Assembly (NCBI RefSeq): GCF_058153355.1
Contig: NZ_CM177019.1
Reading direction: 5' to 3' (one strand)
Length of the DNA stretch: 64,000 bases
Shown here: positions 9,487 through 60,344 of the stretch, piece after piece
Layout: each line of letters starts with the position of its first letter
Numbering within the stretch: the first letter of the stretch is position 1
Position numbers and translations under genes: made by a program
Notes under the pieces: generated by a model
Databases searched by the model: none
What the model was told of the DNA's origin: nothing
Seen by the model: the letters and a program-made list of their open reading frames with translations, nothing else

Positions 9487-9577
<91 letters not shown>

Positions 9578-19629: not shown

Positions 19630-21024
19630 TCAGAAGAAGTATTTAAAGCGAACGCGTGCGCCGTAACGGTCATCAGTATCATCACCGTGTTTTTTATCAC
19701 CGTCGCTATCCAGAATGGAGTAATAAGTACCAAGGTAAATATTAAAGTTCTCCATATCCATCACATTAGCGAACTGATAAGACGCATGAATGGTGTGAAT
19801 GGTGTACGTCCCTTCATCATCAATCCAGCAGTCGTTATCACAAACTACACCGCTGAATTCATCAATCTTATTGTGCGCGTAGATATAACCCAGCTCGAAA
19901 CGTTTCCACAGCGCGTTAATCCCGGCAGTGAAATCTTTTTCATTATTAGCATCTAAATAGGCGGTATTAAGATTAACCACGACGCCATTTTCCGGATCCG
20001 TTTTCAGGCCATTCCAGGTCATGCTCATACCATAGCCGGTACGATCGGACTGATCGACAAAATTACCCTTGCTATCGGTATAACCATAAGCATTATTTAC
20101 TACGTTCGCTTCCATCGCTGCGGAAACGGTGAATTCTTCCGTCGGCGACCAGGCAATTACCGGACGCAGATAAGCAACATTTTTCTGCTGCTTCATATCG
20201 CGTCCATGATAATTACCGTCATTATATAAAGATGTTCCGTCTTCAAGTAACGTGTTTAATTCAAAATACCAGTTATCGAGTTGTTTGCTGACGAGGAAAT
20301 TACCGCCAGCGTTAGAGCGCCCGCGGCCCTCTTTCATCATATAGATATAACCGCTGCCATCGTCATAAAGATCGTTCGCAGTATTACCGGAATGTTCAAC
20401 AAAGGTATCCTGATTCAGCGGGAACATATCGTAGGCTTCAAAACGGCCTACTTTGACCTTCCAGTCGTTTTCTTTGCCAAAGAAGAATACCGCATCATCG
20501 ATATTTACTGAACCGTGCATATCCCCCAGCGGTTGTGCGGAGAACCCGGCGAAATAACCATTATCCAGTTTTCGCATACCATCAAAACCTAACAGAATAC
20601 GACCATTGAGATTCCACTGTTCATTAGTGGGATCGCTATTCACATCAGCGTTGGTCATTGCCAGCAGGCCATGATTACTTTCCGCATCCATATTAAATTC
20701 TACGTCGCCGTAGATTTTTAAATCGCCATAACCTGAAAGCAAAAGATTAGGTGAGGTGGCATTTTTCTTTGCAGATTCCGCCGTTGTCTGTCCATTTACC
20801 GGCGTATTGCCCTGGGCAGCCTTAATTTCGCGGATCTCAGCGGCTTGTTGTGTCTGCAGCTGTTTTACCTGCCCCTCTGCTTTTGCTGCCCGCATTTCTG
20901 CCGCTTCCAGGCGTTCTTCCAGCAATGCCATGCGTTGTTCCAGCGTTAAATGCTGTGTTTTTGCCATTCCGGTACTACATGCCAATAATAAACCGATGGC
21001 TAAAGATAATGTCGATTTTTTCAT
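19630..21024 (-). CDS. outer-membrane carbohydrate-porin-like protein with N-terminal coiled-coil extension (ScrY/BglH-like architecture)
   Basis: 464 aa; signal peptide MKKSTLSLAIGLLLACSTGMA, then a heptad-like region (LEQRMALLEERLEAAEMRAAKAEGQVKQLQTQQAAEIREIKAAQ), then an aromatic-rich barrel-like region ending in C-terminal Phe (..RFKYFF). Confidence 0.7.
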   Translation of the reverse strand: MKKSTLSLAIGLLLACSTGMAKTQHLTLEQRMALLEERLEAAEMRAAKAEGQVKQLQTQQAAEIREIKAAQGNTPVNGQTTAESAKKNATSPNLLLSGYGDLKIYGDVEFNMDAESNHGLLAMTNADVNSDPTNEQWNLNGRILLGFDGMRKLDNGYFAGFSAQPLGDMHGSVNIDDAVFFFGKENDWKVKVGRFEAYDMFPLNQDTFVEHSGNTANDLYDDGSGYIYMMKEGRGRSNAGGNFLVSKQLDNWYFELNTLLEDGTSLYNDGNYHGRDMKQQKNVAYLRPVIAWSPTEEFTVSAAMEANVVNNAYGYTDSKGNFVDQSDRTGYGMSMTWNGLKTDPENGVVVNLNTAYLDANNEKDFTAGINALWKRFELGYIYAHNKIDEFSGVVCDNDCWIDDEGTYTIHTIHASYQFANVMDMENFNIYLGTYYSILDSDGDKKHGDDTDDRYGARVRFKYFF

Positions 21025-21500: not shown

Positions 21501-21947
21501 ATGGCAGCACTTACTGCAAGCTGTATTGACCTGAATATTCAGGGCAATGGCACTTATTCCGTTCTGAAGCAGTTAGCGACAATGGCGTTACAAAACGGTT
21601 TTATCACCGACTCACATCAATTCCTGCAAACCCTGCTGGTGCGCGAAAAAATGCACTCCACCGGTTTTGGTTCTGGTGTCGCCGTGCCGCACGGTAAAAG
21701 CGCCTGTGTTAAACAACCGTTCGTATTATTCGCTCGCAAAGCGCAGGCCATTGACTGGAAAGCCAGCGATGGCGAAGACGTCAATTGCTGGATCTGCCTC
21801 GGCGTGCCGCAAAGTGGCGAAGAGGATCAGGTCAAAATCATCGGCACACTGTGTCGCAAAATTATCCACCAGGATTTTATCAACCAACTGCGACAAGGCG
21901 ACGCCGTCCAGGTGCTTGCTTTGTTAAATCAAACCCTCAGCTCATAA
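21501..21947 (+). CDS. frvA: PTS fructose-like EIIA component
   Basis: 148 aa from internal ATG (MAALTASCIDLNIQG...); EIIA(Fru/Mtl)-type with the conserved His context. Confidence 0.85.
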   Translation: MAALTASCIDLNIQGNGTYSVLKQLATMALQNGFITDSHQFLQTLLVREKMHSTGFGSGVAVPHGKSACVKQPFVLFARKAQAIDWKASDGEDVNCWICLGVPQSGEEDQVKIIGTLCRKIIHQDFINQLRQGDAVQVLALLNQTLSS

Positions 21948-21957
21948 GGAAGTGGCG

Positions 21958-23409
21958 ATGGAGTCATCCTTACGTATTGTCGCGATCACCAACTGCCCCG
22001 CCGGGATCGCTCACACCTACATGGTGGCGGAAGCCCTGGAACAGAAAGCCCGTTCTCTCGGTCATACCATTAAAGTTGAAACTCAAGGATCAAGCGGCGT
22101 CGAAAACCGCTTATCCAGCGAAGAGATTGCCGCTGCCGATTACGTGATTCTCGCTACCGGGCGTGGCCTGAGCGGTGATGATCGCGCGCGATTTGCCGGG
22201 AAAAAGGTTTATGAGATTGCCATCTCCCAGGCGCTGAAAAATATCGACCAGATTTTCAGTGAATTACCGACAAACTCACAACTTTTTGCCGCAGATAGCG
22301 GCGTGAAGCTCGGCAAACAGGAAGTGCAAAGTGGCAGCGTAATGAGCCATCTGATGGCGGGCGTCTCTGCGGCGCTGCCGTTTGTCATCGGTGGCGGTAT
22401 CCTGGTGGCGCTTGCCAACATGCTGGTGCAGTTCGGTTTGCCGTATACCGATATGTCGAAAGGTGCGCCGTCGTTTACCTGGGTGGTTGAATCCATCGGT
22501 TATCTCGGTTTCACCTTTATGATCCCCATCATGGGCGCTTATATTGCCTCGTCGATTGCCGATAAACCCGCTTTCGCTCCGGCGTTTCTGGTTTGTTATC
22601 TGGCGAACGACAAAGCCCTGCTCGGCACCCAGTCTGGCGCGGGCTTCCTCGGTGCGGTGGTGCTTGGGCTGGCGATTGGCTATTTCGTCTTCTGGTTCCG
22701 TAAAGTGCGCCTTGGCAAAGCATTACAACCGCTGCTCGGTTCCATGCTGATCCCGTTCGTTACTCTGCTGGTTTTTGGCGTACTGACTTACTACGTTATC
22801 CGACCGGTGATGTCCGACCTCATGGGCGGGTTGCTGCACTTCCTGAACACCATTCCTCCGTCAATGAAGTTTGCGGCGGCGTTTCTGGTTGGTGCGATGC
22901 TGGCATTCGATATGGGCGGCCCCATCAACAAAACCGCCTGGTTCTTCTGCTTCTCTCTGCTGGAAAAACACATTTACGACTGGTACGCCATCGTCGGCGT
23001 TGTCGCGCTAATGCCGCCTGTCGCGGCGGGTCTTGCGACGTTCATTGCGCCCAAACTGTTTACTCAACAGGAAAAAGAAGCCGCCAGTAGCGCCATAGTG
23101 GTCGGTGCCACAGTCGCAACCGAACCGGCTATTCCTTACGCTCTGGCAGCCCCGTTGCCGATGATTACCGCCAATACGCTGGCGGGCGGTATTACCGGCG
23201 TGCTGGTGATCGCTTTCGGAATCAAACGTCTGGCACCTGGTTTGGGTATCTTTGACCCGCTGATCGGCCTGATGTCGCCGGTAGGTTCGTTTTATCTGGT
23301 GCTGGCGATTGGCCTCGCGCTGAACATTTCATTCATTATCGTCCTGAAAGGATTATGGTTACGCCGCAAAGCCAAAGCTGCGCAACAGGAGCTTGTCCAT
23401 GAACATTGA
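21958..23409 (+). CDS. frvB: PTS fructose-like EIIBC component
   Basis: 483 aa from ATG 21958 (SD aagga upstream); N-terminal EIIB Cys motif (ITNCPAGIAHTYM) then polytopic EIIC. Confidence 0.88.
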   Translation: MESSLRIVAITNCPAGIAHTYMVAEALEQKARSLGHTIKVETQGSSGVENRLSSEEIAAADYVILATGRGLSGDDRARFAGKKVYEIAISQALKNIDQIFSELPTNSQLFAADSGVKLGKQEVQSGSVMSHLMAGVSAALPFVIGGGILVALANMLVQFGLPYTDMSKGAPSFTWVVESIGYLGFTFMIPIMGAYIASSIADKPAFAPAFLVCYLANDKALLGTQSGAGFLGAVVLGLAIGYFVFWFRKVRLGKALQPLLGSMLIPFVTLLVFGVLTYYVIRPVMSDLMGGLLHFLNTIPPSMKFAAAFLVGAMLAFDMGGPINKTAWFFCFSLLEKHIYDWYAIVGVVALMPPVAAGLATFIAPKLFTQQEKEAASSAIVVGATVATEPAIPYALAAPLPMITANTLAGGITGVLVIAFGIKRLAPGLGIFDPLIGLMSPVGSFYLVLAIGLALNISFIIVLKGLWLRRKAKAAQQELVHEH

Positions 23410-24469
23410 GTTACTGCAACAGTTGTGCGAAGCCAGCGCCGTCAGCGGCGATGAACAGGAAGTTCGCGACATTCTGATGAACACGCTGGAACCCTGCGTG
23501 AATGAGATCACCTTCGATGGTCTGGGCAGCTTTGTTGCCCGTAAGGGGAATAAAGGGCCGAAAGTTGCCGTTGTCGGGCATATGGATGAAGTCGGCTTTA
23601 TGGTCACCCACATCGACGAGAGCGGTTTTCTGCGTTTTACCACCATTGGCGGCTGGTGGAATCAGTCGATGCTCAACCACCGGGTAACCATACGCACACA
23701 CAAGGGAGTGAAAATCCCTGGTGTAATTGGCTCCGTCGCGCCACATGCGTTAACCGAAAAGCAAAAGCAACAACCGCTGTCATTTGATGAGATGTTCATT
23801 GATATTGGCGCGAACAGTCGCGAAGAAGCGGAAAAACGTGGCGTGGAAATTGGCGATTTTATTAGCCCGGAAGCCAATTTTGCCTGCTGGGGCGAAGATA
23901 AAGTGGTCGGCAAGGCGTTGGATAACCGCATCGGCTGCGCAATGATGGCTGAACTATTGCAGACGGTGAATAACCCCGAAATTACGCTTTATGGCGTTGG
24001 CAGTGTGGAAGAAGAAGTTGGGCTACGCGGGGCACAAACCTCGGCTGAACACATTAAACCGGATGTGGTGATCGTGCTGGATACCGCCGTCGCGGGCGAT
24101 GTTCCGGGCATTGATAACATTAAATACCCGCTGAAACTGAGCAACGGGCCGGGGCTGATGTTGTTTGACAAGCGCTACTTCCCCAACCAGAAACTGGTAG
24201 CAGCGTTAAAAAACTGTGCCGTACATAACGATTTACCACTGCAATTTTGCACCATGAAAACCGGAGCGACGGATGGCGGGCGCTACAACGTGATGGGCGG
24301 CGGGCGTCCGGTTGTCGCGCTGTGCCTGCCAACGCGTTATCTGCACGCTAACAGCGGCATGATTTCAAAAGCCGATTACGATGCTCTGCTCACGTTGATA
24401 AGGGATTTTCTGACCACCTTAACCGCGGAGAAAGTCAACGCGTTTAGCCAGTTCCGTCAGGTGGATTAA
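23399..24469 (+). CDS. frvX: M42-family aminopeptidase/endoglucanase-like protein
   Basis: 356 aa; start overlaps the frvB 3' end. Confidence 0.85.
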   Translation: MNIELLQQLCEASAVSGDEQEVRDILMNTLEPCVNEITFDGLGSFVARKGNKGPKVAVVGHMDEVGFMVTHIDESGFLRFTTIGGWWNQSMLNHRVTIRTHKGVKIPGVIGSVAPHALTEKQKQQPLSFDEMFIDIGANSREEAEKRGVEIGDFISPEANFACWGEDKVVGKALDNRIGCAMMAELLQTVNNPEITLYGVGSVEEEVGLRGAQTSAEHIKPDVVIVLDTAVAGDVPGIDNIKYPLKLSNGPGLMLFDKRYFPNQKLVAALKNCAVHNDLPLQFCTMKTGATDGGRYNVMGGGRPVVALCLPTRYLHANSGMISKADYDALLTLIRDFLTTLTAEKVNAFSQFRQVD

Positions 24470-25782
24470 TGCTAAACGAACGCCAGTTAAAGATTGTCGA
24501 TCTGCTGGAGCAACAGCCACGCACGCCTGGCGAGCTGGCGCAACAGACTGGCGTTTCTGGCAGGACCATCCTGCGTGATATTGACTATCTCAACTTTACC
24601 CTTAACGGCAAAGCCCGCATTTCCGCCAGTGGCAACGCGGGCTATCAGCTGGAAATCTTCGAGCGCCGCAGCTTTTTTCAGTTGCTGCAAAAGCACGATA
24701 ACGACGATCGGCTGCTGGCGCTGTTATTACTGAATACCTTCACTCCCCGTGCGCAACTCGCCTCGGCGCTTAATTTGCCAGAAACGTGGGTCGCAGAGCG
24801 TCTGCCCCGCCTGAAACAGCGCTATGAACGCGGTTTTTGTCTCGCTAGTCGCCCTGGTTTGGGCCATTTCATTGATGAGACAGAAGAGAAACGCATTATT
24901 TTGCTGGCGAATCTTTTACGCAAAGATCCGTTTTTAATTCCGCTGTCGGGAGTAACACGAGACAATTTTCAACAATTAACCACCGCCTGCGAAAAGCAAC
25001 GTCGCTGGCCGCTGATGCAAGGCGACTATCTCTCAAGCCTGATTCTGGCTATTTACGCGTTGCGTAATCAGCTTACTGACACATGGCCTGAATATCCCGG
25101 TAGCGAGATAAAACAGATTGTTGAATATAGCGGCCTGTTTCTTGGTGATAACGCTGTAAGAACGCTGACGGGGTTGATAGAAAAACAGTATCAGCAAGCA
25201 CAGGTAATTTCTGCCGATCATGTGCTGGCATTGCTGCAAAGGGTGCCGGGCATTGCGTCATTGAATATTATTGATACGCAGCTGGTTGAGAATATTACCG
25301 GGCATTTATTACGTTGCCTTGCCGCGCCGGTGTGGATTGGTGAGCACCGCCAAAGCAGCATGAATAACCTGAAAGCCGCCTGGCCTGCGGCCTTTGATAT
25401 GAGTCTGCACTTTATTACGCTACTGCGTGAACAGCTCGATATTCCCCTTTTCGACAGCGATCTGATTGGTTTGTATTTTGCCTGTGCGCTGGAACGGCAT
25501 CAAAACGAACGCCAGCCGATCATTTTGCTCTCTGATCAGAACGCGATTGCCACTATTAATCAGCTCGCCATTGAGCGCGATGTCCTGAATTGTCGGGTGA
25601 TTATTGCCCGCAGCGTAAGCGAACTGGTTGCCATTCGCGAAGAGATTGAGCCGTTATTGATCATTAATAACAGCCATTATTTACTGGATGACGCGGTCAA
25701 TAATTGCATCATCGTAAAAAATATCATTACGGCTGCCGGTATCGAACAAATAAAACATTTTCTGGCGACGGCATTTATTCGC

Positions 25783-25794
25783 CAGCAACCGGAG
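25783..25794. repeat. IS4 target-site duplication, left copy (CAGCAACCGGAG)
   Basis: 12-bp direct repeat flanking the element; identical copy at 27221..27232. Confidence 0.85.
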
Positions 25795-27220
25795 TAATGC
25801 CGATCAGTTAAGGATCAGTTGACCGATCCAGTGGCTGTGTAAGAATCCGGAAACGCTCACTTGTTTCCGGATTTTTTTATGCACATTGGACAGGCTCTTG
25901 ATCTGGTATCCCGTTACGATTCTCTGCGTAACCCACTGACTTCTCTGGGGGATTACCTCGACCCCGAACTCATCTCTCGTTGCCTTGCCGAATCAGGTAC
26001 TGTAACGCTACGCAAGCGCCGTCTTCCCCTCGAAATGATGGTCTGGTGTATTGTTGGCATGGCGCTTGAGCGTAAAGAACCTCTTCACCAGATTGTGAAT
26101 CGCCTGGACATCATGCTGCCGGGCAATCGCCCCTTCGTTGCCCCCAGTGCCGTTATTCAGGCCCGCCAGCGCCTGGGAAGTGAGGCTGTCCGCCGCGTGT
26201 TCACGAAAACAGCGCAGCTCTGGCATAACGCCACGCCGCATCCGCACTGGTGCGGCCTGACCCTGCTGGCCATCGATGGTGTGTTCTGGCGCACACCGGA
26301 TACACCAGAGAACGATGCAGCCTTCCCCCGCCAGACACATGCCGGGAACCCGGCGCTCTACCCGCAGGTCAAAATGGTCTGCCAGATGGAACTGACCAGC
26401 CATCTGCTGACGGCTGCAGCCTTCGGCACGATGAAGAACAGCGAAAATGAGCTTGCTGAGCAACTTATAGAACAAACCGGCGATAACACTCTGACGTTAA
26501 TGGATAAAGGTTATTACTCACTGGGACTGTTAAATGCCTGGAGCCTGGCGGGAGAACACCGCCACTGGATGATACCTCTCAGAAAGGGAGCGCAATATGA
26601 AGAGATCAGAAAACTGGGTAAAGGCGATCATCTGGTGAAGCTGAAAACCAGCCCGCAGGCACGAAAAAAGTGGCCGGGACTGGGAAATGAAGTGACAGCC
26701 CGCCTGCTGACCGTGACGCGCAAAGGAAAAGTCTGCCATCTGCTGACGTCGATGACGGACGCCATGCGCTTCCCCGGAGGAGAAATGGCGGATCTGTACA
26801 GTCATCGCTGGGAAATCGAACTGGGATACAGGGAGATAAAACAGACGATGCAACTGAGCAGGCTGACGCTGAGAAGTAAAAAGCCGGAGCTTGTGGAGCA
26901 AGAGCTGTGGGGTGTCTTACTGGCTTATAATCTGGTGAGATATCAGATGATTAAAATGGCGGAACATCTGAAAGGTTACTGGCCGAATCAACTGAGTTTC
27001 TCAGAATCATGCGGAATGGTGATGAGAATGCTGATGACATTGCAGGGCGCTTCACCGGGACGTATACCGGAGCTGATGCGCGATCTTGCAAGTATGGGAC
27101 AACTTGTGAAATTACCGACAAGAAGGGAAAGGGCCTTCCCGAGAGTGGTAAAGGAGAGGCCCTGGAAATACCCCACAGCCCCGAAAAAGAGCCAGTCAGT
27201 TGCTTAACTGACTGGCATTA
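25795..27220 (+). mobile_element. IS4 insertion sequence, complete (1426 bp)
   Basis: Imperfect 18-bp terminal inverted repeats (taatgccgatcagttaag / cttaactgactggcatta), one transposase ORF, length exactly 1426 bp, flanked by a 12-bp duplication. Confidence 0.93.
25879..27207 (+). CDS. insG: IS4 transposase (DDE)
   Basis: 442 aa from [27 protein letters not shown]...; recognised as the IS4 transposase. Confidence 0.92.
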
Positions 27221-27232
27221 CAGCAACCGGAG
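27221..27232. repeat. IS4 target-site duplication, right copy (CAGCAACCGGAG)
   Basis: Identical to 25783..25794. Confidence 0.85.
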
Positions 27233-27710
27233 CGTTTTTTTTCTGCCCCCGGAAGTTTTCATTATTCGAATGTACGTGGTGAAAGCTGGCAACATATTAC
27301 CCGGCAAATATGTGCTCAATTAGTGACGCAACACCACATTACCGCCGATGAAGCACAACGGATCATCGCCCGCGAAAGCGAAGGCGAAAACCTGATTGTT
27401 AATCGTCTCGCCATCCCACATTGCTGGAGCGAACAGGAACGACGTTTTCGTGGATTTTTTATTACCCTCGCCCAACCGGTTGAGGTGAATAACGAAGTAG
27501 TTAACCATGTGCTGATCGCCTGTGCCGCCGCCGATGCGCGTCATGAGCTAAAAATATTTAGCTATCTTGCCAGCGTATTGTGTCAGCATCCGGCAGAGGT
27601 TATTGCCGGGTTAACAGGATATGAGGCATTTATGGAGTTACTTCACAAGGGGTGAACTGTGTCGGATGCGCCGCATCCGACACTGCATTTATCACCAAAA
27701 TCAAAAACAT

Positions 27711-28766
27711 TTAACGCAGGCGATTATAGTCATCGACCATTTCGTTGTACTCGCGTAACGCTCGCGGAAATGAGTCGTCGACCATCCAGCTGGTGTTTGC
27801 ATCCTGAAGTTGCTCTTTATCCCAGTCAGAGTACGGAACTTTATCTCTGACGCGGCGAACATATTTTTTAGCCTCGAGTTGATACTGGTCTGCCGAATTA
27901 ATGAACGAGAAATTCATACCGCCTTTATCCGCTTCTTTGGCCTGCGCCACCAGCGTTTCCAGTTCAGAGACTTTCTTCATTGCCGCATCAACATCAAACT
28001 TCTCTTGCGAAATCAGGTTATTAATTTGTTTCGCTGAAATCATGACTGCCAGGGAGTAGTAGTGGAATGTTTTTCCTTCTGTTTCTTCAATATTTTTCAG
28101 TTCCGCAAGCTGACGCTTATCGTTAATTTCCTGAATCGCCGCATGATAAGATTCTGCTACAGGTTCAAAGGCTTCAAGATTTTTTAAGAATGTCTGGTGC
28201 AGCGTTTTCCCTTTCGCAAACGCATCGTCTTTATAATTTTCCTGGGTGTAATATTTATCCATTTCGTTAATGGTATTACCCAACGCCACGGCAGCATCAA
28301 TATAACTCACCGCCACGCCATCAATAGGTTGCAGCGCAGGCGTTAACGCCACAGCACTTTTTACGCCTTTTTCACACTCAGCGAGGTTGGATTCACTAAT
28401 ACCGTAGATACCATAAACAGTACGCTCTTCACCGGTAGGGCCCTGTTTAAAATCTTTCAGCCAGTCAGCATAACGCGCCAGACTGCTCTGTACAGGGATC
28501 TGTAACTTGTTGTAGCACTTGATATAGACATCCATTTTTTCGTCGAAAACCGCTTGTTCATCGACCACCGGTTGAGCAGGCGTTTCAGGTTTAACTTCTG
28601 CTTTTGTAACGGGAGCTTCAGCAGGTTTCGCTTCAGGAGCTGGTGCGGCAGGTTGACTATTGGCAGGCGGGGGCGTTTCTGTTTCGGTTTTTTTATCATC
28701 ACAACCCGTGATACCGAGAGCCATGATGGCGGCTATAATAGCGGAAGATAATAAATTCCTTTTCAT
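27711..28766 (-). CDS. yiiG: DUF3829-family lipoprotein
   Basis: 351 aa; lipobox (LGITGC) then Pro/Ala-rich linker. Confidence 0.85.
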   Translation of the reverse strand: MKRNLLSSAIIAAIMALGITGCDDKKTETETPPPANSQPAAPAPEAKPAEAPVTKAEVKPETPAQPVVDEQAVFDEKMDVYIKCYNKLQIPVQSSLARYADWLKDFKQGPTGEERTVYGIYGISESNLAECEKGVKSAVALTPALQPIDGVAVSYIDAAVALGNTINEMDKYYTQENYKDDAFAKGKTLHQTFLKNLEAFEPVAESYHAAIQEINDKRQLAELKNIEETEGKTFHYYSLAVMISAKQINNLISQEKFDVDAAMKKVSELETLVAQAKEADKGGMNFSFINSADQYQLEAKKYVRRVRDKVPYSDWDKEQLQDANTSWMVDDSFPRALREYNEMVDDYNRLR

Positions 28767-29945: not shown

Positions 29946-32900
29946 ATGCAGGTCAGCAGAAGGCAGTTCTTTAAGATCTGCGCTGGCGGTATGGCAGGCA
30001 CCACGGCAGCGGCACTGGGTTTTGCACCCAGCGTAGCACTCGCGGAAACCCGGCAGTATAAACTGCTGCGCACCCGCGAAACCCGTAATACCTGCACCTA
30101 TTGTTCCGTAGGCTGTGGGCTGTTGATGTACAGCCTCGGTGACGGAGCAAAAAACGCCAAAGCATCTATCTTCCATATCGAAGGTGACCCGGATCACCCG
30201 GTCAACCGCGGTGCACTTTGTCCCAAAGGCGCTGGCCTGGTGGATTTCATCCACTCCGAAAGCCGTCTGAAGTTTCCGGAATACCGTGCCCCTGGTTCTG
30301 ATAAATGGCAGCAAATCAGTTGGGAAGAGGCGTTTGATCGCATTGCCAAACTGATGAAAGAAGACCGCGATGCTAACTACATTGCGCAAAACGCCGAAGG
30401 CGTGACTGTTAACCGCTGGCTCTCCACCGGGATGCTGTGTGCTTCCGCGTCGAGTAACGAAACCGGCTATTTAACGCAAAAATTCTCCCGCGCGCTGGGT
30501 ATGCTCGCGGTCGACAACCAGGCGCGTGTCTGACACGGACCAACGGTAGCAAGTCTTGCTCCAACATTTGGTCGCGGTGCGATGACCAACCACTGGGTCG
30601 ACATCAAGAACGCCAACCTCGTCGTGGTGATGGGCGGTAACGCCGCTGAAGCTCACCCGGTCGGGTTCCGCTGGGCGATGGAAGCCAAAATTCACAACGG
30701 CGCGAAGCTGATTGTGATCGATCCTCGCTTTACGCGTACGGCGGCGGTGGCTGACTACTATGCCCCTATTCGTTCCGGTACTGACATTGCTTTCCTGTCA
30801 GGCGTATTGCTGTACCTGCTGAACAATGAAAAATTCAACCGCGAATACACCGAAGCCTATACCAACGCCAGCCTGATCGTGCGTGAGGATTACGGCTTTG
30901 AAGATGGCCTGTTCACCGGCTACGACGCGGAAAAACGCAAGTACGATAAATCCTCCTGGACCTACGAGCTGGACGAAAACGGCTTCGCCAAACGCGATAC
31001 CACGCTGCAACATCCGCGCTGCGTGTGGAACTTGCTGAAACAGCACGTTTCCCGTTATACGCCAGATGTGGTTGAAAACATCTGTGGCACGCCGAAAGAC
31101 GCGTTCCTGAAAGTCTGCGAATACATCGCAGAGACCAGTGCTCACGATAAAACTGCCTCGTTCCTTTACGCGCTCGGCTGGACGCAACACTCCGTTGGTG
31201 CGCAGAACATTCGTACGATGGCGATGATCCAGCTACTGCTCGGCAATATGGGGATGGCAGGCGGCGGCGTTAACGCCCTGCGCGGTCACTCCAACATTCA
31301 GGGGCTGACGGACCTGGGGCTGCTGTCGCAGAGCCTGCCAGGTTACATGACGCTGCCAAGCGAGAAGCAGACCGATCTGCAAACCTACCTTGCCGCCAAC
31401 ACGCCAAAACCACTGCTGGAAGGCCAGGTTAACTACTGGGGCAATTACCCGAAATTCTTCGTCTCCATGATGAAGGCCTTCTTTGGTGATAAAGCGACGG
31501 CAGAAAACAGCTGGGGCTTTGACTGGTTGCCGAAGTGGGATAAAGGCTACGACGTCCTGCAATACTTCGAGATGATGAAAGAGGGCAAGGTCAATGGCTA
31601 TATCTGCCAGGGCTTTAACCCTGTTGCCTCATTCCCGAACAAAAACAAAGTGATCGGTTGTCTGTCGAAACTGAAGTTCCTCGTCACTATCGACCCGCTG
31701 AACACTGAAACCTCTAACTTCTGGCAGAACCACGGTGAGCTGAACGAAGTGGACTCGTCGAAGATCCAGACCGAAGTGTTCCGTCTGCCATCGACCTGCT
31801 TCGCGGAAGAGAACGGTTCAATCGTTAACTCCGGTCGCTGGTTGCAGTGGCACTGGAAAGGTGCGGACGCCCCAGGGATTGCGCTGACTGATGGCGAGAT
31901 CCTCTCCGGTATCTTCCTGCGCTTGCGCAAGATGTACGCCGAACAGGGTGGCGCGAACCCGGACCAGGTGCTGAACATGACCTGGAACTACGCCATCCCG
32001 CATGAGCCGAAGTCGGAAGAAGTGGCGATGGAGAGCAACGGTAAGGCGCTGGCCGATATTACCGATCCGGCAACCGGGGCGGTTATCGTCAAGAAAGGCC
32101 AACAACTTAGCTCGTTCGCCCAACTGCGCGATGACGGTACCACCTCCTGTGGCTGCTGGATTTTCGCCGGTAGCTGGACGCCAGAGGGCAACCAGATGGC
32201 ACGCCGTGATAACGCCGATCCGTCTGGCCTCGGTAACACGCTGGGCTGGGCATGGGCATGGCCGCTTAACCGCCGCATTCTGTATAACCGCGCCTCCGCA
32301 GATCCGCAGGGTAACCCGTGGGATCCGAAGCGTCAGTTGCTGAAATGGGACGGCACTAAGTGGACCGGCTGGGATATTCCGGACTACAGCGCAGCGCCTC
32401 CGGGCAGTGGCGTCGGGCCGTTTATCATGCAGCAGGAAGGCATGGGGCGTCTGTTTGCTCTCGATAAGATGGCGGAAGGTCCGTTCCCGGAACACTACGA
32501 GCCGTTTGAAACGCCGCTGGGAACTAACCCACTGCATCCAAACGTTATCTCGAACCCGGCTGCGCGAATCTTTAAAGACGATGCCGAAGCATTGGGTAAA
32601 GCCGATAAGTTCCCGTATGTCGGAACCACCTATCGTCTGACCGAGCACTTCCACTACTGGACCAAACACGCGCTGTTGAATGCGATTTTGCAGCCAGAGC
32701 AGTTTGTGGAAATCGGGGAGTCGCTGGCGAATAAACTTGGCATTGCTCAGGGCGATACCGTGAAAGTCTCCTCCAACCGTGGCTATATCAAAGCCAAAGC
32801 GGTGGTGACCAAACGTATTCGTACGCTAAAAGCGAACGGCAAAGATATCGATACCATCGGTATTCCGATTCACTGGGGCTATGAAGGTGTTGCGAAAAAA

Positions 32901-33911: not shown

Positions 33912-34543
33912 AACGACGTGACACCATCGTGCGCTACACCGCGCCGGAACGTATCAACCACTGGATCACCGCCTTCTGCTTCATCCTGGCGGCGGTGAGC
34001 GGGCTGGGCTTTTTGTTCCCTTCCTTTAACTGGTTGATGCAAATCATGGGCACACCGCAGCTGGCGCGCATTCTGCACCCGTTTGTCGGCGTGGTTATGT
34101 TTGCCTCGTTCATCATCATGTTTTTCCGTTACTGGCATCACAACCTAATCAATCGGGATGATATCTTTTGGGCGAAGAATATTCGTAAGATCGTCGTCAA
34201 CGAGGAAGTAGGTGACACCGGGCGTTATAACTTCGGTCAGAAATGCGTTTTCTGGGCGGCGATTATTTTCCTGGTCCTGCTGTTGGTGAGCGGCGTGATT
34301 ATCTGGCGTCCTTATTTTGCGCCTGCTTTCTCAATCCCGGTGATCCGATTCGCGTTAATGCTGCATTCATTTGCCGCAGTGGCGTTAATTGTGGTTATCA
34401 TGGTGCATATCTACGCCGCCCTTTGGGTGAAAGGCACAATTACCGCCATGGTGGAAGGATGGGTTACCAGCGCCTGGGCGAAGAAACATCACCCGCGCTG
34501 GTACCGTGAGGTCCGCAAGACAACGGAAAAGAAAGCTGAATGA
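33908..34543 (+). CDS. fdoI: formate dehydrogenase-O cytochrome b556 subunit
   Basis: 211 aa, four TM helices; overlaps fdoH stop. Confidence 0.93.
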
Positions 34544-35469
34544 GTATTCGCATAATCCCGCAAGATGAGCTGGGTTCGAGCGAGAAACGTACGGCGGATA
34601 TGATTCCGCCGTTATTGTTCCCTCGGCTCAAGAATTTATACAACCGCCGCGCCGAACGTCTGCGCGAGCTGGCAGAAAATAATCCGCTGGGTGATTATCT
34701 GCGCTTTGCTGCGCTTATCGCCCACGCCCAGGAAGTGGTGCTGTACGACCATCCGCTGGAAATGGATCTGACTGCACGCATTAAAGAAGCCAGCGCACAG
34801 GGCAAGCCACCGCTGGATATTCACGTTTTGCCGCGTGATAAGCACTGGCAAAAGCTGCTGATGGCAATGATTGCTGAGCTGAAACCTGAAATGAGCGGCC
34901 CGGCGCTGGCAGTGATTGAGAATCTGGAGAAGGCATCAAGCCAGGAGCTGGAAGATATGGCCAGCGCGCTGTTCGCCTCTGATTTCTCGTCCGTCAGCAG
35001 CGATAAAGCGCCGTTTATCTGGGCTGCACTGTCACTCTACTGGGCGCAGATGGCCAATCTGATCCCGGGCAAAGCCCGCGCTGAATACGGCGAGCAACGT
35101 CAATATTGCCCGGTTTGTGGTTCTATGCCGGTGTCCAGTATGGTGCAAATTGGCACCACTCAGGGTCTGCGTTACCTGCACTGCAACCTGTGTGAAACTG
35201 AATGGCACGTAGTGCGCGTAAAATGCAGCAACTGTGAACAGAGCGGCAAACTGCATTACTGGTCGCTGGATGACGAACAGGCCGCGATTAAAGCCGAAAG
35301 CTGCGATGACTGTGGCACTTACCTGAAGATTCTTTATCAGGAAAAAGAACCGAAAGTTGAAGCCGTGGCAGATGACCTCGCCTCTCTGGTACTGGATGCG
35401 CGAATGGAGCAAGAAGGCTACGCCCGCAGTTCCATTAACCCGTTCCTGTTTCCGGGTGAAGGGGAGTAA
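34540..35469 (+). CDS. fdhE: formate dehydrogenase formation protein
   Basis: 309 aa; CxxC pairs ([30 protein letters not shown]). Confidence 0.93.
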
Positions 35470-48412: not shown

Positions 48413-48466
48413 GCTGAATCTCCCGTCCAAAAGCGCAAATCATGCCATGCAGGCCGGAAACGGCCA

Positions 48467-48494
48467 TTATCTAAAACCTCGGTTTACAGGAAAC
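48467..48494. repeat. gix recombination site (gin-proximal)
   Basis: ttatctaaaacctcggtttacaggaaac; inverted relative to the copy at 51540..51566. Confidence 0.8.
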
Positions 48495-48537
48495 GGTAAA
48501 CAAGGCTGGTAACGCTGTTCAAAAGACAGGTGATACC

Positions 48538-49503
48538 TTGTCCGGTGGACTTACTTTTGAAAACGACTCAATCCTTGCCTGGATTCGAAATACTGACTGG
48601 GCAAAGATTGGGTTTAAAAATAATTCGGATGCAGACACCGATTCCTACATGTGGTTTGAAACAGGCGACAACGGCAATGAATATTTCAAATGGAGACACC
48701 ACCTCACTGGCGGCCGGGTTAAAGACCTGATGAATCTTAAATGGGATGCTCTGTATGTTCTTGTGAAAGCCCTTTTCAGCAGTGAAGTGAAAATATCGAC
48801 AGTCAATGCACTGAGGATATTTAATTCATCTTTTGGTGCCATTTTTCGTCGTTCTGAAGAATGCCTGCATATCATCCCTACACGAGAGAATGAGGGGGAA
48901 AATGGTGATATAGGGCCACTACGCCCCTTTACGCTTAATCTCAGAACTGGCCGGATAAGCATGGGGCATGGTCTTGATGTTACAGGGGATATATTTGCAA
49001 ACCGTTTTGCAATTAACAGTAGTACCGGCATGTGGATTCATATGCGTGACCAGAATGTTATTCTGGGCCGTAATGCGGTATCCAACGATGGTGCGCAGGC
49101 ATTGCTTCGCCAGGACCATACCGACCGTAAATTCGTAATTGGTGGGCTGGGGAATAAGCAATTTGGCATCTACATGATTAATAACTCAAGGACAGCCAAT
49201 GGCACCGATGGTCAGGCGTACATGGATAATAACGGTAACTGGCTTTGTGGTGCGCAAGTTATTCCCGGCAATTATGGCAATTTTGACTCCAGATATGTGA
49301 AAGATGTCCGGCTTGGCTCACAGCAATATTATGGTGTGAATAACTGGCAAACATGGAATTTCCAGTGCCCGTCAGGCTATGTACTGACGGGGATTAACGT
49401 ACAGGATACCGGAAAAAACTCTGCCGATAATATTGCAGGCGTTCATTACAGGCCAGTGCAAAAGTATATAAATGGCACCTGGTATAATGTGGCGAGTATT
49501 TAA
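48538..49503 (+). CDS. alternative tail-fibre variable segment (Sv'), silent in this orientation
   Basis: C-terminus (..[19 protein letters not shown]) parallels that of S; lies inside the invertible segment on the opposite strand. True 5' boundary is the gix site. Confidence 0.7.
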
Positions 49504-49504
49504 T

Positions 49505-50032
49505 ATGATGCACTTAAAGAACATAAAAGCGGGTAATGCTAAAACACCAGAACAGTATGAGTTAACAAAGAAACACGGAGTTATCTGGCTTTACTCTGAG
49601 GACGGAAAAAACTGGTATGAGGAAGTGAAGAACTTTCAGCCGGATACAATAAAGATTGTTTACGACGAAAATAATATTATTGTCGCCGTCACTAAAGATG
49701 CCTCCACGCTTAATCCTGAAGGTTTTAGCGTCGTTGAAATCCCCGATATAACAGCTAACCGTCGTGCCGATGATTCAGGGAAGTGGATGTTTAAGGACGG
49801 AGCGGTGGTCAGGAGGACTTATACAGCAGACGAACAGCAGCAACAGGCCGAATCACAAAAGGCCGAGTTACTTTCCGAAGCTGAATCAGTCATCCAGCCG
49901 CTGGAACGCGCTGTCAGGCTGAATATGGCAACAGACGAGGAACGCACACGACTGGAAGCATGGGAACGCTACAGTGTTCTGATCAGCCGTGTGGATACGG
50001 CAAAGCCCGAATGGCCACAAAAACCTGAGTAA
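49505..50032 (+). CDS. alternative tail-fibre assembly protein U'
   Basis: About 175 aa, paralogous to U (both begin MMHLKNI.AGN...[19 protein letters not shown]). Confidence 0.75.
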
Positions 50033-50060
50033 AAATTAAGGCCCGATATCGGGCCTTCTC

Positions 50061-50594
50061 TCATTCTGGTTGTTCGGGAAACGTTACTGGCAGGCTGGAG
50101 GTGTCTGTGGATTCGACCTTCTGCGCATAGAGCATCCACTCGGTTAATTTTTGTTTATTCTCGTCGGAAATAATGCCCAGCCGTAGCTGTGAGTCCCACA
50201 GCTGGGTTTTATCCCTGACGAGCTGTAGCAGGCTTTGCTTTTCATTTTCCGCTTGTTGCCTCTGCTCTTCCCCGGTATAAGTTCGCTTTATCACTACGCC
50301 ATCTTTGAACATCCATTTACCTGAAATATCAGCCCGGCGATTTGCTGTAATATCAGGAACCTCAACGACGCTTGCGCCTTCCGGATTAATTGCTGAAACA
50401 TCCTTTTCAATACAAATAATAACGCCGTTGTGGTCATAGACCATTTTCAACGTATCAGGCTGAAAGTTCTTTTGTTCCTCATACCAGTTTTTCCCATCCT
50501 CTGTATAAAGCCATTTGATGTTAAATTGCTTTGTTAGCTGGTATTGCTCTTTTGTTTCAGGATTACCAGCAGAAATGTTTTTTAAGTGCATCAT
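50061..50594 (-). CDS. U: tail-fibre assembly protein U
   Basis: 177 aa directly after S on the same strand. Confidence 0.78.
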   Translation of the reverse strand: MMHLKNISAGNPETKEQYQLTKQFNIKWLYTEDGKNWYEEQKNFQPDTLKMVYDHNGVIICIEKDVSAINPEGASVVEVPDITANRRADISGKWMFKDGVVIKRTYTGEEQRQQAENEKQSLLQLVRDKTQLWDSQLRLGIISDENKQKLTEWMLYAQKVESTDTSSLPVTFPEQPE

Positions 50595-50596
50595 CG

Positions 50597-52063
50597 TTAA
50601 ATACTCCCCGCGTTATACCACGTCCCATTAATGCAATACTGAACTGGCCTTGCCTGAGTTGTATCAATTAGTTCATCTCTGTTTGAGTTAACGGAACCGG
50701 TAACAACATAACCTGACCTGTCAGACCAGCCGGGACCATTCCATGTCTGAACAGATGACAGACCACCAAGGCGAATACCTGTAATAAACCTTGAGTTACA
50801 TTCTGCCTGCGTATATGCGCCAACATCTCTCGCTGATGGCTTGCGTGTTGTGGTGTAAAACTCTGACCAGCCAGCCTCAAATCCATAACCATCACGCGCT
50901 GAACGATAAAAAATACCGCCGTTCCTGTAATTCACACGGAACTGTACGGCAGGGCAACTCCCCGTATTCATATTGAAGTGGAGGATTAATGTTGTTGCGC
51001 CACCAATATTTGCGTTATAGACCCCGCTATTCCAGTTCCAGCCAACGGCTTTGTCGTTTCCGACGGTATTTCCTGTTTGCCCTAAAGCAAATGCAGGCTG
51101 CTGGTTTTTCGTGTTGTAGTCTCGTCGCCAGCCAGGAGCGTAAGCATCACCATGATTAATATAAGTGAATTGAGCGTTAGTGATTCCGCCGCCGCTGGAC
51201 GTGCCCGGCGTGGTAACGCGTATGGTCATTGCGCCGCGGGTGCCAATAACTTCCACCACAGCACCTGCAAGACAAATATTTCCGCAACCTGTATCTGTAA
51301 TGACCTTATTATTTGCATAAGCCCATGAGCCTTTGCACATCCAGTAAGGATGGTTAAATGCTCCCTGACTCTCCAGCCACGAAATAAATTGCGCAGTTGT
51401 CCAGACCTGACTATCGCCACCAATATCCACCCATGCGCTATATGCGCGACAGGCACCAATATTTTTGGTGAAGGTATCTTTTCCTGGAATATCTGCGCCG
51501 TTCTGGTTTTTCTGTAATGCGCCAGAAGCCTGATTTACCGTTTCCTGCAAACCGAGGTTTTGGATAAACAGCGGCTTATTGGGAATATCTGCTCCGTTCC
51601 GGTCTTTTGCCAGACGGGCATTGGCATTATCCATCGCAATTTTCACCGCTTTTGCGGTGGCTGCCAGCGTTTCACTGGGGCTGTCAGTGGCACTGGTTAG
51701 CTGAACGAGTCCTTTTTTGTTCAGGCTGGCATCATAGATATCCAGATTTTCACGTGCTGTACGCTGTGCTGATGCCCCGGCAGTTTTAATTTCGCTGAGG
51801 TTATTTTTTATCAGCAGCGCGTTCTTGTTCATGATGGCTTTAATGGACAGTGCAAGCTGGTTTAATTTTGTTTTATCCGGTTGAATACCGGCTTCTTCCA
51901 GCGTGTTTAATAACTCCGCCTGCACAATATTAAACCAGTCCATGCCGGGCCATGTGATAACATTATTCCCGTCACCTTCTGAAAACCAGCGAACGATAGC
52001 ACTACGCTTGGCGGATACGGGCGGCATGACGGTTACGCCGCTGTCGTTATCAATATAAAACAT
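50597..52063 (-). CDS. S: tail fibre protein S (constant part outside, variable part inside the G segment)
   Basis: 488 aa; the ORF crosses the gix site at about 51540..51566, so the G segment is in the S-U expressing orientation. Confidence 0.78.
   Translation of the reverse strand: MFYIDNDSGVTVMPPVSAKRSAIVRWFSEGDGNNVITWPGMDWFNIVQAELLNTLEEAGIQPDKTKLNQLALSIKAIMNKNALLIKNNLSEIKTAGASAQRTARENLDIYDASLNKKGLVQLTSATDSPSETLAATAKAVKIAMDNANARLAKDRNGADIPNKPLFIQNLGLQETVNQASGALQKNQNGADIPGKDTFTKNIGACRAYSAWVDIGGDSQVWTTAQFISWLESQGAFNHPYWMCKGSWAYANNKVITDTGCGNICLAGAVVEVIGTRGAMTIRVTTPGTSSGGGITNAQFTYINHGDAYAPGWRRDYNTKNQQPAFALGQTGNTVGNDKAVGWNWNSGVYNANIGGATTLILHFNMNTGSCPAVQFRVNYRNGGIFYRSARDGYGFEAGWSEFYTTTRKPSARDVGAYTQAECNSRFITGIRLGGLSSVQTWNGPGWSDRSGYVVTGSVNSNRDELIDTTQARPVQYCINGTWYNAGSI
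51540..51566. repeat. gix recombination site (distal), inside the S gene
   Basis: gttcctgcaaaccgaggttttggataa, inverted copy of 48467..48494 with a few mismatches. Confidence 0.8.
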
Positions 52064-52605
52064 TAGTTATCTCCGTCATGGTAAACAAATTTATAAATCT
52101 GATGTGCGGGTTTATATTTCTCCAGTAAACATTCCAGTGCACCCGATTCATAAACACGTAACGGCGTCAGAACATTATCCAGCACCGTTGCGTTGCGATA
52201 ATTTTTAATACCGTAAATATTGACCTGCGTAACCCACTGGCCTTCTGTGGAATCCGTCAGTCTGACGGTAAAACCGTACTGCGCAGCCAGCCATTCATAA
52301 AAGCGCCGACTCAGATTGCCGGTCATACGCATTTTATTTGCGGCAGCCCGCTGGCGTTCGGACAGGGTGCCGTTTTCGCTTGTACAGTCCGGCAACCCCA
52401 GAAATGATTCCCACTCCCTCAGATACCAGCGGGATGTGGACGGGAAACGCTCCCGCAGCATTTGCCGCGCATCATCCGCCGCAGTGGCAATCACATCGCT
52501 GATGGCCTGCGCCAGCGCAGATAATTTGCTGTCGGGGCTTTTATTCCAGGCAAGCCCTGACGGCAGTAATTGCAGAAAGGCAGCCTGATACGGTGTTACA
52601 GCCAT
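52063..52605 (-). CDS. Mu-type baseplate/tail protein (gp48-like)
   Basis: 180-aa ORF in the late tail block, by position. Confidence 0.6.
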   Translation of the reverse strand: MAVTPYQAAFLQLLPSGLAWNKSPDSKLSALAQAISDVIATAADDARQMLRERFPSTSRWYLREWESFLGLPDCTSENGTLSERQRAAANKMRMTGNLSRRFYEWLAAQYGFTVRLTDSTEGQWVTQVNIYGIKNYRNATVLDNVLTPLRVYESGALECLLEKYKPAHQIYKFVYHDGDN

Positions 52606-53678
52606 TCAATTGTCCCCGGTGTTAACAGTTCCGTATTCTCCGAACGCCGGATCTCTGTCGGGAAACGCACTTCAAAATCATCCAGACCGGTAACACCTGC
52701 CACCGCACGGATAATACGGGAGGGGGCAAGTGTGCCGCCCGGCGTCACTTCATTAAAAAACATGGTATTAATGGCGTGGGTAATAGCCTGTTTCAGTTCG
52801 ACAGTCTTCGGTGATATATAAATCCGTGGATTTACCGGCTTTGCCTTTGGCGCAAATACCGTGACATTTACACCGTCAGGCTGTCCGACAATCAGGCCGG
52901 TTATCGGGTCAGTATGACCGGCGATATAATCCGCCACGCGTTCCACATCTGCCGGTTGTGGAAAAATATTGCTCCGGTTATCCATAACAAACGTCACCCC
53001 GACTGTGCCACCGCCTTTCCATGCCGGAAAACACCAGGCACGGGTAACGCCGCTGACTTCACGCGCCCAGCGAACATAATCAAACTGATTACCGCCGAAC
53101 GGAGGATACTGGACACGATATTCCAGCCGTGACAGCAGCTCCGCTGCACTCTCAATATCAGCCCCACCGGAAAACCCTTTTACAGTGATGGCATCGGAAA
53201 CAACACAGGCAACCGGGGTGATCAACGTTAAAAGGGTATTCTCACCGGTATTTCCTGCCTCACCGGCAGCCAGTGCGGTAACGGTAATTTCCGTCGTTCC
53301 TGCACGGCCAATCACAATGGCATCAGCCAGACTGTAAACCACACCATCAGCACGCTGCCAGCGTGTACCGGCAGGAATGGTGGTCGCTGCCGATGTGGTG
53401 ACAGTCAGCGGGCCGCTGGCGGCTGTCGCCTGTTTGCGGCGCACGCCCCAGAACCGGCAGTGCTCCAGCAACTCATCTTCATCTGCTGTCGACGGGATAA
53501 TCTGCCGTCCAACCCATGAAATATGCTCGTGACAACCGGCAGCAAGGCCCGCCTGAGCATAAGCAATGGCACTCAGCGTTTTTTCACGGGCCTGAGGCCA
53601 GCTACCCGGCAGGCGCTGTTCAATATTCTGTTCTGTACGGGCAATCAGCGATGATAATGTCGGTGGTGAATAAGCCAT
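52596..53678 (-). CDS. baseplate J-like wedge protein (Mu gp47-like)
   Basis: 360-aa ORF, position in tail module. Confidence 0.6.
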   Translation of the reverse strand: MAYSPPTLSSLIARTEQNIEQRLPGSWPQAREKTLSAIAYAQAGLAAGCHEHISWVGRQIIPSTADEDELLEHCRFWGVRRKQATAASGPLTVTTSAATTIPAGTRWQRADGVVYSLADAIVIGRAGTTEITVTALAAGEAGNTGENTLLTLITPVACVVSDAITVKGFSGGADIESAAELLSRLEYRVQYPPFGGNQFDYVRWAREVSGVTRAWCFPAWKGGGTVGVTFVMDNRSNIFPQPADVERVADYIAGHTDPITGLIVGQPDGVNVTVFAPKAKPVNPRIYISPKTVELKQAITHAINTMFFNEVTPGGTLAPSRIIRAVAGVTGLDDFEVRFPTEIRRSENTELLTPGTIEWL

Positions 53679-54116
53679 TTAAACCCCGTTAAATACTGTT
53701 TTAAACTCATAAGGAATAACGGAACCATCCGGTAATGTCAGTGCAATGTAGAGGTATAACCAGCCCTGATGTAACTGTTCCGCTCTGACGTTAACCGCAC
53801 TTACCCGGCCCGCTGTTTTCAGCCATTCCAGCGCCTCTTCGGCATACTCTCTGGCACGTTCCGGCGTATCCTGTGTGGTTTTTTCACGTGATAACAGCCA
53901 CAACCGCGAACCGATGGGACGGTCGCGGTAACTGTCACCCCACCATCCACGGCGATCATCTGAACCATCCGGCAGCGTGTCAGAATCCAGCGTGCGCCGG
54001 TCGGTAAACAGGGAGATTGTCACATCGGTTGTCAGGCTGTCGTCGGTCAGCATATCAATGCCATCCTGTGCAATATCGCCGCGTCCGTTCGTCCAGATAA
54101 TGGCTAAATCGGTCAT
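53679..54116 (-). CDS. baseplate protein (Mu gp46-like)
   Basis: 145-aa ORF, position. Confidence 0.55.
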   Translation of the reverse strand: MTDLAIIWTNGRGDIAQDGIDMLTDDSLTTDVTISLFTDRRTLDSDTLPDGSDDRRGWWGDSYRDRPIGSRLWLLSREKTTQDTPERAREYAEEALEWLKTAGRVSAVNVRAEQLHQGWLYLYIALTLPDGSVIPYEFKTVFNGV

Positions 54117-57313: not shown

Positions 57314-57317
57314 GGTT

Positions 57318-59483: not shown

Positions 59484-59534
59484 TCCGGGCCACTTTTCAG
59501 AATAACGCCAATCGCTGTCGCCGCTTTCTCAATA

Positions 59535-59969: not shown

Positions 59970-59978
59970 TGGTTCCCC

Positions 59979-60335: not shown

Positions 60336-60344
60336 AAATGCTCC

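Follow-up and report, generated by a model that had tools for sequence, protein, structure and literature searches.

An IS4 insertion within frvR splits off the EIIA-like domain of a predicted regulator in Escherichia coli

The frv locus and the interrupted frvR gene

The window analysed here is a stretch of 64,000 nucleotides from contig NZ_CM177019.1 (NCBI RefSeq assembly GCF_058153355.1). It contains an frv locus, a sugar-transport operon that has been little studied, in which the final gene, frvR, is divided by a complete copy of the insertion sequence IS4. Gene calls for the locus were obtained by mapping a near-identical Logan contig (1 mismatch) to the window and from the annotation of an intact locus. 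The main features, in window coordinates, are as follows.

21501-21947, + strand: frvA, PTS EIIA, 148 aa, intact
21958-23409, + strand: frvB, PTS EIIBC, 483 aa, intact
23399-24469, + strand: frvX, M42 peptidase family, 356 aa, intact
24469-25797, + strand: frvR N-terminal fragment, 442 codons and TAA
25783-25794: target-site duplication, left copy, CAGCAACCGGAG, 12 bp
25795-27220, + strand: IS4, 1426 bp, transposase gene co-oriented with frvR
27221-27232: target-site duplication, right copy, CAGCAACCGGAG, 12 bp
27233-27655, + strand: frvR C-terminal remnant, 140 codons and stop, EIIA-type domain

IS4 entered frvR after codon 442, and the TAA that closes the N-terminal fragment consists of IS4 nucleotides 1-3. 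On the other side of the element, the frame is open from 27221 to 27655 (144 codons and a stop), of which four codons are duplicated and 140 are new. The remnant is predicted to have no usable translation start since it contains no in-frame ATG before codon 138 and its GTG at codon 35 has no Shine-Dalgarno sequence. In silico excision of IS4 and one copy of the repeat produced an open frame of 1749 nt encoding 582 aa, with five amino acid differences from the intact protein WP_000931328.1. This reconstruction matches NCBIfam NF007366 over its full length: residues 1-582 align with profile positions 1-586, and the score of 1025 bits is well above the cut-off of 426. Neither fragment as encoded is full length.

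The original prediction had taken the first bases of IS4 as the stop codon of a 442-codon fragment and had described the 140 codons downstream as an EIIA-like part lacking its own start. Both readings are borne out, the first by translation of 24469-25797 and the second by a Pfam match to PTS_EIIA_2 together with the start-codon check.

The order frvA-frvB-frvX-frvR is also found in K-12, Enterobacter and Trabulsiella, and is kept around a 49%-identical homolog in a different genomic context. In the window, frvABXR ends with frvR, and the gene downstream, yiiG, is convergent. The role of FrvR as the frv regulator is only a prediction, made from the name of its family, the conservation of the frvABXR gene order and the protein fold; a literature search on frvR and the frv operon returned table listings alone and no functional study.

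The IS4 element and its transposase

IS4 is the founding member of the IS4 family and encodes a DDE-type transposase. The ends and coding region of the window copy are listed below.

25795-25812: left 18-bp terminal inverted repeat, TAATGCCGATCAGTTAAG
27203-27220: right 18-bp terminal inverted repeat, TAATGCCAGTCAGTTAAG
25879 (ATG)-27207, + strand: IS4 transposase ORF, 442 aa, uninterrupted by stops

The two inverted repeats pair at 16 of 18 positions, begin with TAATG at both ends of the element and are the same as those of the K-12 IS4. The K-12 element, which carries insG (b4278), shares with the window copy its 1426-bp length, its terminal repeats and a 12-bp target duplication, and differs by three mismatches (1423/1426 nucleotides identical). 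In K-12 a single IS4 is located between yjgZ and nanX, whereas the window copy is within frvR. Copies in many other E. coli genomes are 99.9% identical to that of the window.

According to De Palmenaer et al. (2008; PMC2266710), members of the IS4 subgroup are 1400-1650 bp long with terminal inverted repeats and -AATR- ends, and encode a transposase in a single ORF, with no frameshift, that contains a DDE triad and a Y-(2)-R-(3)-E-(6)-K motif. The window element has the size and the -AATR- ends of this subgroup and is near-identical in nucleotide sequence to the archetype, the K-12 IS4. Its transposase is encoded by one ORF with the catalytic residues D133, D209 and E314 and an intact YREK motif at 307-321 (Y307-R310-E314-K321). 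Pfam identified Nterm_IS4 (3e-33) and DDE_Tnp_1 (9e-32), and the NCBIfam model transpos_IS4_1 scored 304 bits (cut-off, 115). The protein is identical to WP_000483766.1, a common allele, and differs from the K-12 transposase only by A304G and L326R, both of which are common across E. coli copies. The PGAP annotation places the start at a TTG codon at 25861, which gives 448 aa. From its intact ends and the widespread transposase allele WP_000483766.1, the window element is predicted to be competent for transposition.

The original prediction of a complete 1426-bp IS4 inside frvR, with imperfect 18-bp terminal repeats, an intact 442-aa transposase and a perfect 12-bp direct repeat, was thus reproduced in each of its parts.

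Target site and duplication

The repeat CAGCAACCGGAG is perfect over 12 bp and abuts IS4 at each end, which falls within the 10-13 bp reported for the IS4 subgroup (PMC2266710). Among the other IS4 copies examined, 13 of 14 have flanking duplications of 11-13 bp, and it follows that the duplication at frvR is not a product of chance. The exception, in strain SCU-172, is an IS4 beside a truncated GntR-family gene and has no duplication. Other insertions adjoin adhE, typA, aroA, crr/pdxK and cueR or are found within ygeA, pgaB, a phage tail gene and Tn3; like the frvR insertion, they are 1426 bp long with duplications of 11-13 bp.

A target consensus for IS4 from older work, AAA-N20-TTT, was used as a lead only and the target pattern was re-derived from genomic copies. 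A general statement in PMC2266710 was the only literature found on IS4 target specificity. The sample consisted of seven distinct sites picked regardless of their flanks. Each has a duplication of 11-13 bp. In six of the seven, three or more consecutive T occur in the six bases past the duplication, and most have an A-run approximately 3 nt before it. The corresponding feature in frvR is the following.

27235-27242, + strand: T8 run, the sole T8 in frvR, 2 nt past the duplication

The T8 run takes the position of the right arm in the IS4 target preference. The T-runs at the other insertions listed above are likewise 2-4 nt past the duplication. In addition, a CAGC..GGAG duplicated core is common to the frvR site and several others. 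The frvR site was also examined for the A-run of the left arm, which is absent. Many of the other IS4 sites are intergenic and terminator-like, with a GC-rich palindrome between an A-run and a T-run, whereas the site in frvR is intragenic with the T-run arm alone. The collected sites again point to terminator-like targets for IS4, with frvR as a half-site example.

The possibility of an IS4 hot spot in frvR was raised by other draft contigs that stop 15-18 nt downstream of this position and yield partial products of 447 and 448 aa. The ends of these contigs were checked for IS sequence and none was found.

Distribution of the junction and authenticity of the assembly

A search of 5,426 complete E. 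coli genomes found no copy of the junction between IS4 and frvR; the closest of these genomes are approximately 99% identical to the window. An exact scan of GTDB representative genomes with the left junction gave no matches, nor did an exact scan of JGI metagenome contigs with the right junction. Contigs of two separate sequencing runs, SRR28786219 and SRR31441161, contain the left junction with 0-1 mismatch over 4.3-6.4 kb, and the truncated FrvR product was found only in two Logan assemblies of sequencing runs. No independent occurrence of the right junction was found.

In principle, an IS4 copy at another locus could have supplied reads that were misjoined into frvR during assembly. Genomes contain 1-24 copies of IS4, often more than one, and contigs assembled from short reads of this lineage end 26 nt inside the element, a hint that it has more than one copy. 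However, a misjoin would not yield a perfect duplication of typical length at both ends, nor would removal of IS4 be expected to restore an intact frvR frame, and the site conforms to the IS4 target preference. Since contigs of two independent runs contain the identical left junction, the insertion is not considered an artefact, and a misassembly can be given almost no weight.

The original description of the element as recent and possibly still active is reasonable on sequence grounds because the duplication is perfect, the ends are those of the K-12 element, the transposase is WP_000483766.1, and the junction is absent from the 5,426 complete genomes.

Domain architecture of FrvR

Sequence searches with FrvR were informative only at its two ends. 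Pfam identified HTH_11 at residues 5-60 and PTS_EIIA_2 in the C-terminal domain (E = 2.9e-15). With a threshold of E <= 10, weak HTH matches alone were found at residues 60-442 and the PRD family had no match at residues 181-345, while a sequence search of the PDB gave only a marginal match to PtsN. As a result, the architecture described here rests on an AlphaFold model (mean pLDDT 84) and on Foldseek comparisons. The N-terminal fragment is modeled as a pair of winged HTH domains together with a helical PRD-like region and an EIIB-like domain. Foldseek matched this part to MgaSpn, AtxA and MafR over approximately 490 columns (5way, E = 5e-10; 4r6i, E = 1e-9; 3sqn, E = 1e-8), and matched residues ~450-582 to PtsN/EIIA-Mtl. 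Sequence identity between FrvR and these solved PRD-containing virulence regulators (PCVRs) is a mere 13-15%.

The last helix of the EIIB-like domain spans residues 422-439 in the model and the first EIIA strand spans 451-453. The insertion point at residue 442 is therefore in the modeled linker between the two domains. Within the severed domain, an AIPH motif aligns with GIAIPH of PtsN and its histidine is His505 of intact FrvR. His505 is invariant across 36 homologs with identities down to 48%, as are 22 further residues of this domain. A further invariant histidine, H279 in the helical region, was identified from the conservation among these homologs only.

At the level of the fold, the predicted order of HTH, HTH, helical PRD-like, EIIB-like and EIIA-like domains in intact FrvR is that of activators of the MtlR/LicR/ManR type. 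In Mga, AtxA, MgaSpn and MafR, the order stops after the EIIB-like domain, as would be the case for truncated FrvR. FrvR thus has an EIIA-like domain with its active-site histidine, and this domain is what IS4 has split off.

The truncation raises the question of a changed function. FrvR(1-442) might fold, dimerize through its EIIB-like domain and bind DNA, yet no longer respond to the frv PTS proteins, which would otherwise phosphorylate His505. The frvABX genes would then be locked on or off, and the insertion may even have been selected. The modeled position of residue 442 between domains is favorable to such a product, as is the match of the N-terminal fold to MgaSpn, AtxA and MafR, which end at the same domain. 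PCVRs resemble MtlR yet are always without an EIIA-like domain, and their EIIB-like domain mediates dimerization (PMC8560693). On the other hand, strong conservation of the lost domain suggests that it is needed for normal activity, and the EII-like domains of MtlR are reported to be required for activity via tethering to the permease (PMC8560693). Moreover, the insertion is carried by a very narrow lineage with no sign of selection, and the IS4 target preference accounts for the site by itself. A gain or change of function is accordingly regarded as unlikely. A more specific proposal is that of a natural domain deletion, in which a regulator of the MtlR type would have become one of the Mga/AtxA type, active and blind to PTS signals, with the cryptic frvABX genes locked on. 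This is considerably less probable still.

Transcription into and out of IS4

Two features at the left end of IS4 bear on transcription.

25819-25846, + strand: promoter-like site, TTGACC-16-AAGAAT, extended TG
25841-25876, + strand: strong hairpin followed by a U-run, touching the transposase ATG from upstream

The first is a candidate transposase promoter, identified by consensus match only. The second has a centroid folding energy of -18.8 kcal/mol (z = -3.8) and is terminator-like; it would halt read-through from frvR. Because this hairpin covers the transposase start, expression of the transposase is expected to be low.

It was also considered whether the main effect of the insertion might be transcription out of the element, from an outward or read-through promoter, into the EIIA remnant or antisense to the convergent yiiG. 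At the right end of IS4 there is a hairpin (27191-27216) that lacks a T-run on the + strand, which could let transposase transcripts run out of the element. However, no promoter-like site facing outward was found at the right end, a further hairpin directly 3' of the frvR stop codon stands before yiiG, and the transposase is itself expected to be weakly expressed. The 140-codon remnant would in any case be silent because it has neither a start codon nor a ribosome-binding site. Outward transcription as the main effect is very improbable.

Consequences of the insertion

Taken together, a copy of IS4 very probably inserted by transposition into chromosomal frvR in an uncommon lineage of E. coli and cut off the EIIA-like domain. 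Transposition made a 12-bp staggered-cut duplication, typical of the element, and the TAA at the start of IS4 would leave FrvR(1-442) as the sole possible FrvR product. This product is predicted to keep both HTH domains, the helical PRD-like region and the EIIB-like domain and to lose the EIIA-like domain with the invariant His505, the probable phosphorylation site. Transcripts that enter IS4 from frvR would probably terminate at 25841-25876. No polarity on other genes is expected given the terminal position of frvR in its operon and the convergent orientation of yiiG.

The most likely outcome, judged from the sequence, is that normal FrvR function is lost, or at least any control that the phosphotransferase system (PTS) for sugar uptake exerts via the EIIA-like domain. 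Loss of function is not assured because regulators of the Mga/AtxA type work without an EIIA domain (PMC8560693). The original prediction had named two outcomes, loss of the regulator or a truncated DNA-binding fragment, and the sequence is compatible with both. With FrvR either lost or deregulated, regulation of the frv genes may be altered. The effect on fitness is probably small since the frv locus is dispensable: frvR is present in 4,206 of the 5,426 complete E. coli genomes and approximately a fifth are without it.

Significance

The insertion is real and strain-specific, yet it is an ordinary insertion mutation in which both the element and the type of event are already known, and it has little significance beyond annotation of the strain. 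In this lineage, frvR should be annotated as a pseudogene or truncated allele and IS4 listed among the probably mobile elements of the genome. The strain provides a clean natural deletion of the EIIA-like domain of FrvR that may be used to probe the role of this domain. If the domain deletion outlined above were true, it would show how EIIA-less PRD-containing regulators could originate in one step from activators of sugar operons. As a useful by-product, FrvR, an uncharacterized E. coli regulator, is found to have an MtlR-like domain order at the level of the fold.

Anatomy and identity of the insertion

An IS4 element interrupts frvR, the predicted regulator gene of the frv operon (frvABXR). 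The original prediction, made from the sequence alone, was borne out in full at 24300-27900, where repeat searches identified the following:

25794-25812 and 27203-27221, inverted-repeat arms (inverted-repeat search)
25783-25794 and 27221-27232, target duplication, a perfect 12-mer, CAGCAACCGGAG (direct-repeat search)

Exactly 1426 bp (25795-27220) separate the two 12-mers. Translation confirmed a 442-residue reading frame from 24469 that ends at a TAA stop (25795-25797) formed by the first three bases of IS4. The frvR frame is picked up again at 27221 for 144 codons with a stop at 27655. In-silico deletion of IS4 and one repeat copy restored a continuous reading frame of 1749 nt (582 codons). 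It equals K-12 frvR in length; compared with the uninterrupted allele of strain MFDS1022581 (WP_000931328.1), it has 19 nt and 5 aa differences.

The inserted element is IS4 itself. The K-12 copy (NC_000913.3, 4502090-4503515) differs at 3 of 1426 positions, has the same 18-bp terminal repeats (16/18 matching) and is likewise flanked by a 12-bp duplication. The transposase contains the Pfam domains Nterm_IS4 and DDE_Tnp_1 and matches NCBIfam transpos_IS4_1. The catalytic triad is D133, D209 and E314, and positions 307-321 carry an intact Y-2-R-3-E-6-K motif; these residues and this motif are hallmarks of the IS4 family (De Palmenaer et al. 2008, PMC2266710). Only two amino acids, A304 and L326, distinguish it from K-12 InsG (G304/R326), and this is a common polymorphism. 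The identical protein, WP_000483766.1, is annotated at many other insertion sites. Among 5,426 complete E. coli genomes, 2,686 carry IS4, with between 1 and 24 locations in each (median 1).

Target site

Nine IS4 copies from other genomes, picked solely by identity to the window element, yielded seven distinct sites with a duplication of 11-13 bp, while one copy had no duplication. In the typical site of this set, the duplication is preceded at about 3 nt by an A-run and followed at 2-4 nt by a T-run. The sole T8 run of frvR begins 2 nt past the duplication; with IS4 set aside, the remaining 62.6 kb of the window contain just four A8 or T8 runs, this one included. Thus, the site fits the right arm of the IS4 preference without the left arm. 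Five further sites share a CAGC..GGAG core and a following T-run with the frvR site, in a set that is biased since it surfaced through flank resemblance to frvR.

Many natural IS4 sites resemble intrinsic terminators just 3' of genes: between an A-run and a T-run lies a GC-rich palindrome, and it is this palindrome that IS4 insertion turns into the 11-13-bp duplication. Comparison loci of this kind from other E. coli genomes (L010, L016, L017 and L020) adjoin crr/pdxK, adhE, typA and aroA.

Authenticity of the insertion

The exact 442-aa truncated product is also encoded on contigs of SRR28786219 and SRR31441161, which are identical to the window or one base different over 4.3-6.4 kb. Both contigs stop 26 nt into IS4, as short-read assemblies are expected to do at a repeated element. 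The IS4-frvR junction was absent from complete E. coli genomes and had no match in GTDB representative genomes or JGI metagenome contigs. From the duplications, the target fit, the two independent runs and the absence of the junction from these collections, the insertion is real and probably recent, and it is confined to a narrow lineage.

Several draft contigs of other E. coli lineages (L006-L008) end in frvR 15-18 nt downstream of the IS4 site and encode partial FrvR products (447 and 448 aa); four samples have one of these contigs in common. These contig ends may reflect another repeat insertion nearby, but they contain no IS sequence.

Other features of the window

9494-9571, naRNA4, REP-derived (Rfam match)
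19630-21024 (- strand), RafY-type glycoporin, 464 aa (Pfam Porin_8, E = 3e-154)
30528-30586, SECIS element in an fdoG-type formate dehydrogenase gene (Rfam match)
36597-38510 (- strand), ORF of 637 aa, downstream of the ORF at 34540-35469
46780-64000 (- strand), Mu-like prophage, right end; the prophage extends past the window edge
46905-47627, Mom, in the prophage
47822-48430, Gin-type invertase, in the prophage
48538-50594, probable invertible tail-fibre segment (ORFs), in the prophage
50600-52063, tail fibre gene, in the prophage
57321-59483, tape measure gene, in the prophage
60348-61832, tail sheath gene, in the prophage

The glycoporin gene sits between rhaM and frvA; the closest relatives of the strain also have a gene there, and K-12 has none. 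Because of its selenocysteine UGA, the fdoG-type gene is listed as separate ORFs broken near 30533/30582. The 637-aa ORF has no Pfam match. For the prophage, the best E. coli matches reach ~96% identity and occupy different chromosomal positions.

Predicted fold of FrvR

Over its full length, reconstructed FrvR belongs to NF007366, the family named "putative frv operon regulatory protein". Homologues were gathered and aligned down to 48% identity. The AlphaFold model (mean pLDDT = 84) is composed of:

residues about 1-63 and 78-135, two winged-helix domains
residues 139-343, all-helical region
residues 351-439, alpha/beta domain
between the alpha/beta and EIIA-fold domains, short linker
residues 451-582, EIIA-fold domain

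In a Foldseek search, the N-terminal part hit MgaSpn (5way, E = 5e-10), AtxA (4r6i) and MafR (3sqn), and the C-terminal domain hit PtsN and EIIA-Mtl. MtlR has the same domain order as the FrvR model, including the terminal EIIA-like domain, while the Mga/AtxA group "always appear truncated" without it (PMC8560693). Since IS4 is positioned after Glu442, in the linker, the remaining N-terminal product, FrvR(1-442), keeps the complete domain set of the Mga/AtxA group at the level of the fold. A product of this composition might stay active as a deregulated DNA-binding protein, which we consider unlikely. The part lost is the EIIA-like domain with the AIPH histidine, His505, which lines up with the region around the phosphorylated histidine in PtsN; His505 and 22 other residues of the lost segment are invariant among 36 homologues.

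With IS4 removed, the frvR allele (24469-27655) is unusually divergent from K-12 (119 nt, 31 aa, 93% identity). Only four complete genomes carry a frvR at least 99% identical, while many genomes match the flanking genes at 98-99% identity. Relative to the nearest allele there are five amino acid changes, four of them grouped within residues 241-251.

Probable consequences for the frv locus

The upstream genes frvA, frvB and frvX are all intact. The gene order, with frvR last, is kept in Enterobacter and Trabulsiella, and also around a more distant homologue that lies in a different neighborhood. With frvR at the end of the cluster and yiiG beyond it in convergent orientation, the insertion is not expected to be polar on other genes. 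Transcripts arriving from frvR should terminate within IS4 at 25841-25876, where a stable hairpin (centroid -18.8 kcal/mol, z = -3.8) and the U-run after it lie immediately ahead of the transposase ATG. Up to codon 138, the 140-codon remnant lacks an in-frame ATG, and its GTG (codon 35) has no Shine-Dalgarno sequence; no outward promoter was seen at the right end of IS4. The allele is most likely null, or at least blind to any signal that the EIIA-like domain receives.

The frv locus seems dispensable: 1,220 of 5,426 complete genomes lack frvR, and Shigella flexneri has fragments of it. A literature search found no functional study of FrvR. The analysis supports the interpretation that IS4 splits frvR into a 442-codon fragment and an EIIA-type remnant, a textbook insertional truncation whose biology is already known. 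Its interest is local: it bears on how this strain is annotated and may offer a natural EIIA-deletion allele of the uncharacterised regulator FrvR.
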